Shown here: one piece after another, positions 21,452 through 63,564 of the stretch
Layout: each line of letters starts with the position of its first letter
Position numbering within the stretch: the stretch's first letter is position 1
Virus record (IMG/VR): IMGVR_UViG_3300042888_001941
Location: 1 to 64,000 of that record
Source of the DNA: a virus
Strand: one strand, 5' to 3'
DNA: 64,000 nucleotides
Translations under genes and position numbers: made by a program
Notes under the pieces: generated by a model
Told to the model about the DNA's origin: nothing
What the model saw: the letters and a program-made list of their open reading frames with translations, nothing else
Databases searched by the model: none

Positions 21452-21491
21452 AAAAAGAAAAAGACTAGGCGGGTGAATGCCTAGTCTTTTT
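21452..21491. terminator. Intrinsic terminator, possibly bidirectional
   Basis: AAAAAGACTAGGC-8nt-GCCTAGTCTTTTT hairpin with A and T tails. Confidence 0.8.
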
Positions 21492-54702: not shown

Positions 54703-55035
54703 TTACGAGGCGATTTCTAGTCCTCGCTTGCGGCGAATAACTCGTCTTTCACGTTCGCTTGTCCCACCCCAGATTCCAAACTCATGATGCTCTATCGCCC
54801 AGTCTAAGCACTCGTCTATAAGGTCGCAGCGACGACATACTGCGCGAACCATCTTAAACTCTTTACCTTGCCCGCCACCTTTTTCTGGGAAAAACAAATC
54901 TGGATCTACGCTAGCGCAGTTAGGAGTTCCTTTATCGTAAAAGGTTGGATATGCTTTTGAGATCTGAATGTCGATAACCATGGGCGGACCATATACAAAA
55001 CCGTTAGACTTGTAAACTGTAAGTCTTACGTGCAC
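54703..55035 (-). CDS. whiB: WhiB family Fe-S transcription factor
   Basis: C..DPDLFFP..C..C..C..A..GIWGG.SERER. Confidence 0.92.
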   Translation of the reverse strand: MHVRLTVYKSNGFVYGPPMVIDIQISKAYPTFYDKGTPNCASVDPDLFFPEKGGGQGKEFKMVRAVCRRCDLIDECLDWAIEHHEFGIWGGTSERERRVIRRKRGLEIAS

Positions 55036-55036
55036 A

Positions 55037-55336
55037 TTAACGGGTGCCAGTAAATCCTTGCTTACGCAATAGGACTAATCTTTCGTCTGCGCCCATTCCT
55101 CCCCAAACTCCGTAGAATTCAGGTACACGTAAAGAATGCTCAAGGCACTGCTGCATTACAGGGCAAGCTTTACATATCTCTATTGCAGCTTTTTCTTTTT
55201 TCTTCTTTTGAACACTTCTTAAGTTGTGCTCTAGGAAGAATATCTCTGGATCTGCTTCTCTGCATGAGCCAAGACTCTGCCATTCCCATTCTTCATAAAT
55301 AGGACGCAGGTTATCTAACTGCGGATTGTGCTTCAT
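55037..55336 (-). CDS. whiB: WhiB family Fe-S transcription factor (WhiB3/WhiD-like)
   Basis: WEWQ..G.CR..D..FF..C..CPV..C..HSL.V.E.YGVWGG. Confidence 0.92.
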   Translation of the reverse strand: MKHNPQLDNLRPIYEEWEWQSLGSCREADPEIFFLEHNLRSVQKKKKEKAAIEICKACPVMQQCLEHSLRVPEFYGVWGGMGADERLVLLRKQGFTGTR

Positions 55337-59339: not shown

Positions 59340-60007
59340 AAATGGAGATAGATGAATTCTTTCAAAAGGATCAAGTCACCTATTCACAGCTAAGGCAAGA
59401 TCTTTTTGCTCTGTACCATAAGCAAGACTCACCAGGATACTTTGTAGAGTTTGGTTCTCTTGATGGGATAGACACGAGCAATACGTACATCCTTGAGAAG
59501 TATCATGGCTGGACAGGAATTCTTGCAGAGCCACTTCCTCGCTTCTACGATGAGCTCCATCGCAATCGCGCATGCATCATTGATACCCGTTGCGTGTTCT
59601 CTCACTCCGGTGACGTTGTTCAGTTCGGTGAGGTCGAGGACTTCCCTGCGGTGTCTACTTTGATTTCTCATAAGGACCAAAGCAGTATGTGGAAAGAGAA
59701 GCGTCAGACGAATAAGATCCACGATGTCGTGACAGTTTCCCTTGATGACCTATTAGACGAGCACAATGCACCTGCGGTGATAGATTACCTATCTATCGAC
59801 ACTGAAGGATCTGAATACACGATTCTTAGCGCTCACAGTTTCAAGCGTCCGTTTAACACAATAAGTGTTGAATACGCAAACCAAGATGAGCGTCATAAGC
59901 TTTACAATTTACTTACGTACCACAAGTATATTCGGGCTCACGCAAAACTTTCCCAGTGGGAAGACTGGTACGTGTACGCACCTTGGTACGTAGAGAAGTA
60001 CCACTAG
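59336..60007 (+). CDS. FkbM-family methyltransferase
   Basis: SQ..QD, FVEFG..DG...SNT..LE, W.GIL.EP, IDYLSIDTEGSE. Confidence 0.88.
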   Translation: MKMEIDEFFQKDQVTYSQLRQDLFALYHKQDSPGYFVEFGSLDGIDTSNTYILEKYHGWTGILAEPLPRFYDELHRNRACIIDTRCVFSHSGDVVQFGEVEDFPAVSTLISHKDQSSMWKEKRQTNKIHDVVTVSLDDLLDEHNAPAVIDYLSIDTEGSEYTILSAHSFKRPFNTISVEYANQDERHKLYNLLTYHKYIRAHAKLSQWEDWYVYAPWYVEKYH

Positions 60008-60080
60008 AGCGAACGACGGGGTTCGAACCCGCGACCTGAACCTTGGCAAGGTTCCGCGCTACCAGCTGCGCTACGTTCGC
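60008..60080 (-). tRNA. tRNA-Gly(GCC), CCA not encoded
   Basis: Acceptor GCGAACG/CGUUCGC, D arm AGCGCAGCUGGUAGCGC, anticodon arm AACCU-UGCCA-AGGUU, T loop GGUUCGAACC. Confidence 0.95.
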
Positions 60081-60790: not shown

Positions 60791-61444
60791 ATGCGTGTTC
60801 TAGTTTTAGCAGCTGGAACCGGAGATCGCTGGGGCAACTATCGAGGAACTGCTAAACACTTTCTTAACGTTGAAGGTGAAGTTCTCATCGAGCGTACCAT
60901 CAGGCAGTTTTCTAAGTACACAGATGACATATTAGTCGTAGGTTCAGGTCTGGAGTACTCGTTCTCTAATACGTCGTTGTTCATACCTGCGGTGACAGAT
61001 ACCGACGTGCTACTCGGTGATATGCTTAAGTTTTATTCATCAATGCACCTGTGGTCGGACGTTAGAACCGTTCTTGTATTCGGTGACGTTTATTTTACCG
61101 ACGACGCGGTTAGCCAGATCATGTCGTCCGACCTAAACTTTACATTTCTTCTTCGCTCTAACTCGCAGGGACAGGCGGGAGGACGACGCGAGGTGTTCGC
61201 GCTTTCATTTAATGGATCAATGAACCAGGTTATATCCGATAATATACTTAAGCACATAAAGGGTCGCTCGGCCCCACGGGCAGGAGGATGGTTTTTATAC
61301 AAGTCCTTGGTTAGACCAAACTATATCTATAACAACAATCACATAGACATAGACGACTGGACGACGGACTTTGACTATCCTGAAGATGTTATCTTGTGGG
61401 AGACTAAAAGAAAAGAAAATGCCGAGCTAGAAGGCAATAAGTAA
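60791..61444 (+). CDS. Nucleotidyltransferase (LicC/MobA-like fold)
   Basis: LAAG.G.RW..KH..GE.LI.RT, FGDVYF, DFD.PED. Confidence 0.75.
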   Translation: MRVLVLAAGTGDRWGNYRGTAKHFLNVEGEVLIERTIRQFSKYTDDILVVGSGLEYSFSNTSLFIPAVTDTDVLLGDMLKFYSSMHLWSDVRTVLVFGDVYFTDDAVSQIMSSDLNFTFLLRSNSQGQAGGRREVFALSFNGSMNQVISDNILKHIKGRSAPRAGGWFLYKSLVRPNYIYNNNHIDIDDWTTDFDYPEDVILWETKRKENAELEGNK

Positions 61445-61445
61445 C

Positions 61446-61793
61446 TTACGCTCTTCCAAAGTCATCTTCGTAACGAATGATGTCGTCTTCACCTAGGTAC
61501 TCGCCTGTCTGTATTTCAATAAAGACAAGATCCTCTAAGCCTTCTGCCTCTACGCGGTGAACTTCTCCAACTCCGATTGACACGTAGTCTCCTGGACCAA
61601 GGTGCAGTTCTTGCTCGCCTAGCTCAACCTTGGCGTACCCCTGCGTCACATACCAATGCTCTGCACGGTGTTTGTGTGATTGTTTGCTGAGACGGCTTCC
61701 AACTTCAACGTGTATACGTTTAACTTGCGCGCGTTGCTCAGTGTGAAGGATTACATAAAAGCCCCAAGGGCGAACAAAGATCTCTTGCGTCAT
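61446..61793 (-). CDS. Cupin, mannose-6-phosphate isomerase type II-like
   Basis: RPWG.Y, KRI.V..G.RLS.Q.H.HR.EHW, IEIQTG.Y.GEDDI.R.EDD.GR. Confidence 0.9.
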   Translation of the reverse strand: MTQEIFVRPWGFYVILHTEQRAQVKRIHVEVGSRLSKQSHKHRAEHWYVTQGYAKVELGEQELHLGPGDYVSIGVGEVHRVEAEGLEDLVFIEIQTGEYLGEDDIIRYEDDFGRA

Positions 61794-61814
61794 ACATGAA
61801 CTGTATCATAAATA

Positions 61815-62040
61815 GTGAGCCGAGCTAGCAGCGGGCGACGGGACTTATTGCTACCCTAAAGGTAGCTCCATCATTCGACTACCCGTCCAATGTCTGAGCA
61901 TACCCGCTGCTAGCACTCAACTCTGTAGTTGGGACGGATGACAGTTGTACGTCTTGTCCAGGACGATTCGAACAGGCGGGGTGGGCTAAGGTTCACTTTC
62001 GTGGTGACAAGTTACTGATGGCGTCCCAGGCTGTGGCGAT
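61815..62040 (-). ncRNA. Two-domain structured ncRNA candidate
   Basis: Promoter copy at 62046; closing stems 61930-36/62022-28 and 61824-35/61903-14 with nested helices; no convincing ORF. Confidence 0.6.
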
Positions 62041-62057
62041 AATTAAATTATAACAGG

Positions 62058-62333
62058 TTAAGGCTGCTTAAGCGTATTTACCCAACCTACAAGAGACTCA
62101 AGGGATAGGTCCATCATGCCGTCTTCCCCTAGAAGGTCCTCAAGGCGGCCAATGATGTCGGACAGTTCTTCCTCTGTGACACCCGTAAGACGCATAATGT
62201 GTTCTTCCATAAGACCCATTAGCTCACGCATAAAGTCTATCGGCACCAGGGCAAGACCCTCTTCTTTCAGGTACTGCATTAGAACATCATCATCCCTATC
62301 AAAGTCAGGATCTATATCATCTTCGAATGCCAT
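62058..62333 (-). CDS. Highly acidic small protein
   Basis: 91 aa, D/E-rich; leaderless start. Confidence 0.6.
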   Translation of the reverse strand: MAFEDDIDPDFDRDDDVLMQYLKEEGLALVPIDFMRELMGLMEEHIMRLTGVTEEELSDIIGRLEDLLGEDGMMDLSLESLVGWVNTLKQP

Positions 62334-62436
62334 TGATAGATACTATCTTACAATAATCGCGGTGACAGTTTTACGTTTTAGCCCTTACGTGATATTGTTT
62401 ATTATATTAAATGACACACGACCAAAGGAAGATTAA

Positions 62437-63564
62437 ATGAAAAAGCTTATATCTACTCTCGGACTTATCTCTGCATTAGCATTAGTCGCATCACCTGCGC
62501 AGGCGCGCTGGGCAATTGACTATGACCCAGTCGGTTCTATCTTTAGAATGGTAGAAGATGATCTGCTCCAAACCAGAGCAGACGGTTACTTTGTTATCTC
62601 TGCAGAGGAGATTACGACTGCTAGAGAAGCCGCGCCTACAGCGCCAAGCAAGTATGCTGTTATCATTGGCGGTGTTGTTGACAAGATAGTTACGTGGGAC
62701 GGTTACAGTCCACACGCAAAGATTAAGGATAACAGCGTAGTAGTTAAGATCCCAGCTGAGGGCGGCGTTAAGTACGTTGACCCTAAGGGATTCATTCGTC
62801 TTAAGGCAATCACCCAAGGATCAATTATCTCTGTTGTTGATGCTCCAGGATCTACCATTACTCCTACACTTGTTGATATTGAGTATGTTCCTGTCGTTGA
62901 ATTACCTGAGGAGCCAGTAGGACCTGCGGTGACAGAAGCAAACTCTGCAGTTGTTGTAAGCCAATCCGTCGCGGTGAACAACTCGATTTCTCTTAACATC
63001 CAGGTTCCTGATGTTGCCAATCTTCCTTCAACGTCATCTGTATCTGTCTATGTTGTAACTGACGGTAGATCTACCACTGCTATTGGTCTAGCACCGTCAC
63101 AAACTGCGGTGACAGTAACAGACGTGCCTCAAGGACAAAACGTTACGGTTAAGACAGTGATTCACGACTCTGTGACGAACACTGAGACGGTTGTTTCCAA
63201 TCCGGTGATTGCTACAACGCCTGTTGCGGTTCCTGTCTCTACACCCGCTCGAGACGCCTCACATGACCTTGCTACAGTTGCTGCTCCAGTAACTCAGGCA
63301 GTAACCACTGATTCATCGGGCGCTCGTAGTGCATCTATCTCAATACCTGCGGTGACAAACTTCGATGGTAACAAGACCTGGGCAACCCTTATGGTTGTTG
63401 ATAAGAAGACAGGGTCTACCACGGCAATTGGAACTGATGGCTCAGCCCAGACTCTAGACGTTAATTCACTAGGGTCTAACAGTGACTATGAGGTTAAGCT
63501 TGTTCTCCGCGATTTAGCAACAGGACAAGAGACAACTATCTACGGTCAAACAATTACTAAGTAG
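62437..63564 (+). CDS. Secreted protein with two FN3/Ig-like repeats
   Basis: Signal peptide; two repeats containing STTAIG..V..V..D..T..ET. Confidence 0.7.
   Translation: MKKLISTLGLISALALVASPAQARWAIDYDPVGSIFRMVEDDLLQTRADGYFVISAEEITTAREAAPTAPSKYAVIIGGVVDKIVTWDGYSPHAKIKDNSVVVKIPAEGGVKYVDPKGFIRLKAITQGSIISVVDAPGSTITPTLVDIEYVPVVELPEEPVGPAVTEANSAVVVSQSVAVNNSISLNIQVPDVANLPSTSSVSVYVVTDGRSTTAIGLAPSQTAVTVTDVPQGQNVTVKTVIHDSVTNTETVVSNPVIATTPVAVPVSTPARDASHDLATVAAPVTQAVTTDSSGARSASISIPAVTNFDGNKTWATLMVVDKKTGSTTAIGTDGSAQTLDVNSLGSNSDYEVKLVLRDLATGQETTIYGQTITK

Follow-up and report, generated by a model that had tools for sequence, protein, structure and literature searches.

Near the end of a 64,000-nucleotide (nt) stretch of viral DNA, positions 1 to 64,000 of the IMG/VR record IMGVR_UViG_3300042888_001941 (hereafter the window), a noncoding gap of 264 nt (61794–62057, minus strand) separates an open reading frame (ORF) of 91 amino acids (aa) from a cupin gene and encodes a member of a conserved structured noncoding RNA family of uncultured phages. 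The evidence supports a promoter-driven, noncoding and structured RNA of ~220–245 nt, and comparison of the relatives supports a core in which an H-type pseudoknot like that of coremin is combined with a second, long-range pseudoknot and with a three-way junction. The RNA is quite possibly a degradation-resistant, stand-alone early RNA that is genetically linked to the downstream cupin gene, and this is the function that we tentatively favour. Few large structured RNAs have two pseudoknots backed by covariation, and the majority of those have proved to be ribozymes, riboswitches or nuclease blockers. The family is missing from Rfam 15; a set of 10,006 structured RNA candidates predicted in IMG/VR (PMC10690425) may already include it.

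A family of related RNAs

Relatives were sought with the two flanking proteins and with patterns derived from the most conserved stretch of the element. Among the matches listed, 70 locus entries reduce to 31 distinct cores, 30 of them complete and the 31st (L111) cut at a contig end; they lie on at least ~34 IMG/VR contigs and at least ~17 metagenome contigs, some of which are probably one assembly deposited in both collections. None of the 120 bacterial and archaeal genome loci among the matches listed is a member, there being no hairpin upstream of the pattern. The copies form about six clades, namely the window type (window, L324 and L335), L346, the L093/L095 type, the L083 and L114 types, L085/L086, and a distant clade 2 with 70–90 extra bases and a promoter of the form TTGTAC-N18-GATATAAT. 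A covariance model restricted to the nested helices scores all 30 cores at 106–157 bits and finds a single match in the window. An initial annotation, made from the sequence of the window, had grouped the element with three units at 21452, 28364 and 28825, a family link that this single match does not bear out; at most they have a promoter type in common.

The minus strand of the element folds at −83.2 kcal/mol (z −2.47, with two of 200 shuffles equally good), and the plus strand is less distinct from its shuffles (z −1.57). Screening of the whole window against Rfam 15 at gathering thresholds gave a tRNA-Gly(GCC) at 60007–60080 as the sole match, and ARAGORN likewise reported tRNA-Gly only. 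At E values up to 10 across 61600–62300 no Rfam family matched the element, two weak snoRNA-like chance matches both falling within the upstream ORF; the ribozyme families and the preQ1 models were unmatched even at this setting, and the homologous element in the loci of 11 relatives had no Rfam match either. A blastn search of the element against GenBank phages returned no match, and a 6-kb query matched only tRNA and thioredoxin genes. A tRNA-like or T-loop element was considered and rejected: the two programs find only the tRNA-Gly, and the T-loop-like string GUUCGAAUC varies in the relatives. A 21-codon frame opening with GUG within the RNA was also set aside, its length not being kept in relatives as judged by eye.

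Two pseudoknots and a three-way junction

The fold was tested on a MAFFT alignment of the 30 complete cores over 47 pairs in eight helices, percentages being those of paired cells. Pairing amounts to 92.9% overall, as opposed to 77.3% in shuffles, with none of 500 shuffles attaining the observed value; these counts overstate independence because the sequences fall into about six clades only. When the partners are slid by one to three columns pairing falls to 29–42%, and 26 of the 47 pairs change on both sides while staying paired.

Read along the minus strand, the core begins with hairpin H1, whose strands CGUC (61965–61962) and GACG (61953–61950) are invariant in all 30 sequences and enclose an 8-nt loop, CUGGACAA. 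Within this loop GACA (61958–61955) pairs across the spacer UACAAC (61949–61944) with UGUC (61943–61940) to form pseudoknot 1, which is 97.5% paired and in which three of four pairs covary. Pseudoknot 2 begins without a gap thereafter and joins AUCCGUCC (61939–61932) to 61888–61881 through 8 bp that are 92.1% paired; each of its three central pairs occurs as three to four pair types, and its variants include CCGUCC/GGACGG, CCACUC/GAGUGG, CCACCC/GGGUGG, CCCGA/UCGGG and CCCAA/UUGGG. Hairpin H2 follows (CAACU-ACAG-AGUUG, 61918–61931; 87.3% paired, two of five pairs changing on both sides); its length varies, and in clade 2 it is a branched hairpin of 30–60 nt. The three-way-junction domain (61824–61914) is closed by the 13-bp stem b (61914–61902 with 61836–61824; 99.2% paired, 10 of 13 pairs covarying). 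It contains H5 (61894–61892 with 61879–61877; 94.4% paired, one of three pairs changing on both sides), whose loop is the 3′ strand of pseudoknot 2, as well as H3 (61872–61869 with 61840–61837; 97.5% paired, three of four covarying) and H4 with the loop UUUAG (61866–61861 with 61855–61850; 71.6% paired, four of six covarying). We read the low figure for H4 as a gap-placement artefact of the alignment; realignment to the covariance model left the gaps unmended, and the MAFFT counts are therefore given.

The stretch 61881–61888 can alternatively pair with 61837–61840, which belongs to H3 as its 3′ strand. Of six pairs tested, three change on both sides, and four stay paired in 14–30 of the 30 rows. 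Two further interactions were dropped, an extension of stem b in the minimum-free-energy fold (GAGUUGA/UCGGCUC), which is not kept in clade 2, and a kissing interaction that would join CCUAAAG of the clade 2 5′ domain to the loop of H4, a loop that varies although its would-be partner stays constant.

This architecture departs from the initial annotation, which had drawn two separate domains where covariation supports two pseudoknots and a three-way junction instead. Two of its helices reappear. The proposed 12-bp stem GCUAGCAGCGGG/CCCGCUGCUAGC is stem b, whose 13 bp include one G-U pair, and the GCUACC/GGUAGC hairpin is H4, with covariation in the 30 cores. Others fare less well: in the 10 distinct closest relatives the outer helix UGGGACG/CGUCCCA is 54.3% paired and the hairpin CAC-GAAA-GUG 66.7%, whereas CAGU/ACUG and CUUGUC/GACAAG do remain complementary (97.5% and 95%) but display no change on both sides and compete with H1 and pseudoknot 1. 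The pairing GACGGG/CCCGUC, at 55.6% over the 30 sequences with two pairs unpaired in 27 of them, is poor because its strands belong to pseudoknot 2 and H3; since four of its pairs, those of the alternative pairing above, stay paired in 14–30 rows, a second conformation is conceivable. Finally, the supposed T-loop-like GUUCGAAUC is not conserved, reading UGCGAAUC, UGUGAAUC or CUCGAAUC in relatives, and constitutes the 3′ strand of a helix termed P0, described further below.

The small pseudoknot is widespread and resembles coremin

H1 and pseudoknot 1 together form a small knot that also occurs outside the family. A search pattern in which H1 and the spacer were fixed and the loop and downstream bases left free gave 121 matches; once duplicates are merged, 97 different 35-nt instances remain, almost all of them on viral contigs that are unrelated. 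All four loop bases pair with bases past the spacer in 67 of these and three of the four in 20 more, a perfect knot match by chance being estimated at ~2%. Across the 97 instances the 5-bp stem is 89.1% paired, four of its five pairs covary, and 102 both-side cell changes compare with 34 in shuffles. Without the rest of the core, pseudoknot 1 occurs in 87 or more further phage loci; Rfam at gathering thresholds, applied to eight such loci, matched one tRNA only. The covariance model of the nested helices places second and third copies of the knot on at least 10 loci, and in these extra copies H1 itself covaries, by eye, as CAAC/GUUG, AGUC/GACU and GGUC/GACC; G000 has a single copy.

The knot recalls coremin (xrRNA-C), which together with its Watson–Crick variant xrRNA-WCC is one of the exonuclease-blocking motifs, or exonuclease-resistant RNAs (xrRNAs), found in RNA viruses of plants and fungi (Dilweg and Olsthoorn; PMC6546385, PMC10520033, PMC10321173). 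Coremin, printed as GUCCGAAGACGUUAAACUAC (PMC10520033), needs a first hairpin (hp1) of 3–5 bp whose loop reads YGAD or YGNNAD, then a spacer of conserved sequence and, after it, a second hairpin, hp2 (PMC10520033, PMC6546385, PMC10321173), and hp2 is required for resistance to Xrn1 (PMC10520033, PMC6546385). One heptaloop (CGAGUAA) and one octaloop also work, and the spacer comprises 8–10 nt with a natural U-to-A change at its second base (PMC10520033). In xrRNA-WCC the loop pairs with the end of the spacer (PMC10520033, PMC6546385, PMC10321173).

[quoted passage not shown] Both continue into a U/A-rich spacer ending AAC-U, with a partial match in sequence: coremin reads GACG-UUAAACUAC and the window GACG-UACAACUGU, which agree at five of nine spacer positions; other phage copies have UAAAACUG or UUAAACUG, and most read UAAAACUGN. 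As in xrRNA-WCC the phage loop pairs by Watson–Crick rules with the spacer end, and as in coremin the whole folds into a compact pseudoknot of the H type in which an A-rich strand runs along stem 1. The loop CCGAGUAA of L083/L136 contains the working coremin heptaloop CGAGUAA. Unlike coremin, stem 2 has 4 bp in the window and 5 in other phages rather than 2–3, the carrier is a double-stranded DNA (dsDNA) phage, and the candidate enzyme is RNase J and not Xrn1. The likeness may reflect homology or convergence. Our literature search found no description of a coremin-type or RNase J-blocking xrRNA motif in phages, and two of the coremin papers, searched for this, make no mention of phages or prokaryotes.

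Several groups of knot-bearing contigs have features of their own. L183, L129, L162, L163, L180 and L182 carry the knot two to three times per contig in C/A-rich leaders without a Shine–Dalgarno sequence, the next AUG following ~20–22 nt past the 3′ strand of the knot, and a spacing so constant suggests that the knot helps translation to start or protects the mRNA 5′ end. A T-arm-like hairpin, CCGGGUGCAACUCCCGG, lies ~100 nt past the knot within a short acceptor-like stem in L121, L142, L155, L156 and L166 and looks like a tRNA-like mini-structure. Directly before the knot, L127, L216, L140 and L192 have a hairpin with the loop CUUACUUCCUUUC, which resembles the anti-Shine–Dalgarno end of 16S rRNA, and a sigma-70-like promoter with ATGTCGGTGG stands 60–100 nt past the knot.

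Promoter, transcripts and probable host

The TAA stop of the upstream ORF (62060–62058) directly adjoins CCTGTTATAATT (62057–62046, minus strand), a cassette-type extended −10 promoter with its TG at 62055–62054 and TATAAT at 62052–62047; the spacing predicts a transcription start at about A62040. In the whole 136,434-bp record CCTG[AT]TATAAT has 14 minus-strand copies, 13 of them at 20.0–35.5 kb, and the element's own is the sole copy of this form outside the cassette array at 19–36 kb, just as the initial annotation had stated for the promoter next to the TAA. Allowing up to two mismatches, the promoter pattern has 22 sites in the window against 3.8 expected. A TGnTATAAT or GATATAAT box is found at the same distance in 27 distinct relatives. 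We assume the cassette array to be an early regulon. Both strands of 61794–62057 were scanned and hold no ORF of 30 aa or more; the earlier reading, of a promoter with no ORF behind it that drives a noncoding RNA of ~225 nt not assigned to a known family, is supported.

RNA libraries contain the element. From a 1-kb stretch around it, seven runs include 6–10% of the words sampled, and four metatranscriptomes from four studies (three riverine and one freshwater) yielded one contig each, of 151–213 nt, lying on 61840–62028, 61863–62011, 61815–62008 and 61836–62023; the third of these extends 20 more bases toward the cupin start. One contig is >99% identical to the window, the others 90–95%. These contigs are consistent with transcription of the element; DNA carry-over is possible.

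The phage record has three WhiB-family genes (window 54742–55282 and G000 99194–99391, minus strand), a family that matched only Corynebacterium among 14 control genomes, and because of these genes the host is probably an actinobacterium.

Linkage to a cupin gene

The gene that follows the RNA (61446–61793, minus strand) encodes a 115-aa cupin of the mannose-6-phosphate isomerase C-terminal type (PF01050, E 6.7e-32). An extended −10-like TGATACAGT (61808–61800) stands 6 nt before its ATG at 61793, within the 3′ tail UCGGCUCACUAUUUAUGAUACAGUUCAUGU (61794–61823, minus strand) that separates stem b from the gene, and at the window locus the gene has no Shine–Dalgarno sequence and probably no leader. 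A TGATA[CAT]AGT box 6–7 nt before the cupin ATG is conserved in the D1a, D1b and L085 clades and fits a leaderless cupin transcript of its own. The gene thus probably has the separate leaderless start with which it had been credited initially.

Linkage was assessed at 32 loci, most of which (L093 upward) were fetched by the RNA pattern and not by the cupin. The cupin gene lies downstream on the same strand in 24, at a distance of 21–47 nt in 16 and of 245–1608 nt in eight; the gap in the window itself is 30 nt. The linkage holds across clades whose cupins are only 44–62% identical. An opposite-strand ORF intervenes between RNA and cupin gene in L101 and L107. The remaining eight loci showed no cupin: in five of them under 1 kb of sequence is available past the RNA, and in L103, L253 and L278 the RNA is intact with no cupin within 2.3–4 kb downstream. 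The earlier view that the element is unlikely to be a cupin untranslated region gains from the gene's own start, but the position upstream of the cupin is kept across very distant relatives, and a functional link between the two therefore remains likely. Identical cores can differ in their distance to the cupin (47 and 672 nt in L107 and L240; 32 and 1608 nt in L093 and L112), which makes the 3′ edge of the RNA a hot spot of gene insertion. Related phages without the RNA carry a methyltransferase gene at the same position (L020–L022 and L087–L090).

Comparison with manA and other structured RNAs

Because its downstream gene is of the manA type, the element was tested explicitly against this RNA (RF01745, gathering cut-off 55.2 bits). 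At E up to 10 there were no hits in 61600–62300, in the whole genome or in the loci of 11 relatives, and two cyanophage records used as positive controls scored 145.6 and 82.5 bits. manA RNAs precede mannose-metabolism genes in cyanophages (Weinberg et al. 2010, PMC2864571). Like the element they are large structured phage RNAs (~190–200 nt) with a proposed pseudoknot (PMC2864571); both are tied to mannose-6-phosphate-isomerase-type genes in aquatic phages, and neither has a known ligand. The manA consensus differs in its closing stem GGGaG/CuCCC around seven hairpins and has no coremin-like knot, and the cyanophage isomerase loci of S-SCSM1 and S-B05 contain no RNA comparable to ours upstream. 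In Synechococcus phage S-B05 (MK799832.1, L482 1426–1784) manA itself (1501–1711) sits in a tRNA array, between tRNA genes at 1426–1499 and 1713–1784, a setting more in keeping with a stable RNA that is co-processed than with a 5′ untranslated element.

A nuclease-blocking flavivirus RNA, which stops bacterial RNase J1 in vitro (PMC5760640), also has both a three-way junction and a pseudoknot, the latter formed by a hairpin loop with a strand that lies outside the junction (PMC5760640). There is likeness too in the proposed role, a mechanical block that leaves a stable noncoding RNA. The order of helices is different, Rfam gives no match, and the likeness is topological only; in the flavivirus type the junction and the pseudoknots form a ring (PMC5760640). 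In size (~26 nt) and in having two short stems with an A-rich strand possibly in the minor groove of stem 1, the small knot is also like luteovirus frameshift knots and preQ1-I aptamers; the knot of beet western yellows virus (BWYV) has been compared with coremin-type knots before (PMC10321173). Unlike these, the phage knot is associated with no slippery site or coding frame, and its position and conserved bases differ.

Possible functions

In the reading that we tentatively favour, that of a degradation-resistant stand-alone early RNA, the variable 5′ domain would be paired from the first transcribed base, the coremin-like knot, stacked on pseudoknot 2 and buttressed by it, would mechanically block 5′-to-3′ degradation, and the 13-bp stem b would clamp the three-way junction. 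Actinobacteria possess RNase J and many leaderless mRNAs; the blocked enzyme in such a host would be RNase J. Either the ~150-nt core or the whole ~230-nt RNA would then accumulate stably as a stand-alone species during infection, and read-through could in addition shield the cupin message. The stand-alone character is supported by eight loci in which the RNA is intact although an opposite-strand gene or 0.25–1.6 kb precedes the cupin, by the three loci (L103, L253 and L278) with no cupin nearby, and by L085/L086, whose RNA would begin at the knot. A more specific proposal, which we consider appreciably less probable, makes the element a phage counterpart of the viral exonuclease-resistant RNAs: the knot, locked to the three-way junction by pseudoknot 2, would halt RNase J, and the product might act early in infection as a decoy akin to the subgenomic flavivirus RNA (sfRNA). 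Should the knot block RNase J, no natural RNA from a virus of bacteria would have been known to resist exonucleases before it; the presence of one 26-nt knot at gene boundaries of many unrelated phages would have an explanation, and a compact part for stabilising RNA would become available for bacteria that possess this enzyme. The coremin fold would in that event be a cross-kingdom device common to plant RNA viruses and dsDNA phages.

A number of points weigh against such a stable RNA. Nuclease resistance of the phage copies is deduced from their resemblance to coremin, and in two respects that resemblance is imperfect: the 8-nt loop CUGGACAA, with U as its second base, breaks the YGAD/YGNNAD rule, and no local hairpin directly follows the spacer, the place of hp2 being taken at once by the 8-bp pseudoknot 2 and then by H2, with no helix there in many other phage copies. 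The RNA-library contigs attest to presence in RNA libraries, not to RNA ends, strand or abundance, and since they include the 5′ domain (to 62028) they show no trimming to the knot. The shuffle statistics are inflated by related sequences from about six clades. The partly kept alternative pairing of 61888–61881 hints at a two-state switch, and the place and strand upstream of the cupin, kept in 24 of 32 loci, also fit a role in cis.

Such a cis-acting cupin leader, be it a riboswitch-like sensor analogous to manA or a 5′ stabiliser of a read-through mRNA, is possible yet doubtful. It would account for the same-strand cupin downstream in those 24 loci, across cupins of 44–62% identity and with loci fetched by the RNA pattern included, and for the alternative pairing; L093-type relatives moreover have a T-rich tract past the closing stem. 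A three-way junction with a pseudoknot is typical of aptamers, but a 13-bp closing stem is too stable for the usual switching P1 helix. The conserved extended −10-like box 6–7 nt before the ATG implies that the cupin has a leaderless transcript of its own, there is no Shine–Dalgarno sequence to sequester, no terminator-like site occurs in 61400–62500, the T tract of the relatives starts 7 nt past stem b, and the RNA stays intact where an opposite-strand gene intervenes or no cupin follows. The precedent remains that manA RNAs precede mannose-metabolism genes in cyanophages (PMC2864571), and if the element were a cupin sensor it would represent a second, independent RNA solution beside manA for the control of phage sugar-nucleotide genes. 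We regard as rather improbable that the RNA acts in trans as a decoy or scaffold, with knots that bind a host factor, a defence protein or a phage protein and nuclease blocking playing no part. A cassette-type promoter of its own and the highly conserved single-stranded stretches (the spacer and the junction 5′ of H5) would suit such a role, and a common binding factor fits the knot's presence at many gene boundaries in unrelated phages, with two to three copies per contig in at least 10 loci. One specific phage protein is harder to reconcile with a knot module in phages of evidently different hosts, and the 91-aa acidic ORF that co-occurs with the RNA in the D1a, D1b and L085 clades is undetected in clade 2.

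Two further explanations carry very little weight. In 16 loci the 3′ end of the structure lies 21–47 nt from the cupin ATG, as might be expected of a processing element in which self-cleavage or an RNase-directed cut, with TGATACAGT as the processing site, frees a leaderless cupin mRNA; this is very unlikely, given that no Rfam ribozyme matches at E up to 10, that TGATACAGT fits an extended −10 pattern found elsewhere in the genome, and that the RNA persists without an adjacent cupin gene. Least credible of all is the absence of any functional RNA, the conservation reflecting DNA-level signals such as promoter regions and recombination joints or else recent common descent. Many copies are closely related, and the exchange of 5′ domains between L096 and L113 testifies to recombination at this place; against this, both crossing helices are among the structures in which 26 of 47 pairs change on both sides, hairpins of differing length swap at the same position, folding favours one strand over the other (z −2.47 for the minus and −1.57 for the plus strand), and RNA-library contigs lie on the element.

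The variable 5′ domain and the upstream gene

Upstream of the core, the window carries a variable 5′ domain of type D1a (61966–62040, minus strand). It is closed by helix P0, which pairs AUCG(C) at 62040–62036 with (U)CGA-A-U at 61971–61966 (96% paired in 10 distinct rows, two of five pairs covarying) and starts at the predicted first transcribed base. A pairing of the 5′ domain with the H1 loop (by eye CUUGUC/GACAAG, GUGCCC/GGGCAU, UUGCU/AGUAA and UUACU/GGUAA) was dropped, since complements of 5–6 nt are expected by chance in 65 nt and clade 2 has none.

The ORF that precedes the RNA (62058–62333, minus strand) encodes a very acidic 91-aa protein without a Pfam match; it was undetected in clade 2 loci, and all contigs of the D1a, D1b and L085 clades have it ahead of the RNA. 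Other clades carry unrelated 5′ domains, as do the near-identical cores of L096 and L113, and the domain is a modular, swappable add-on to the core. L085/L086 lack it altogether; their promoter lies 5 nt before H1, and their RNA would therefore begin at the knot.

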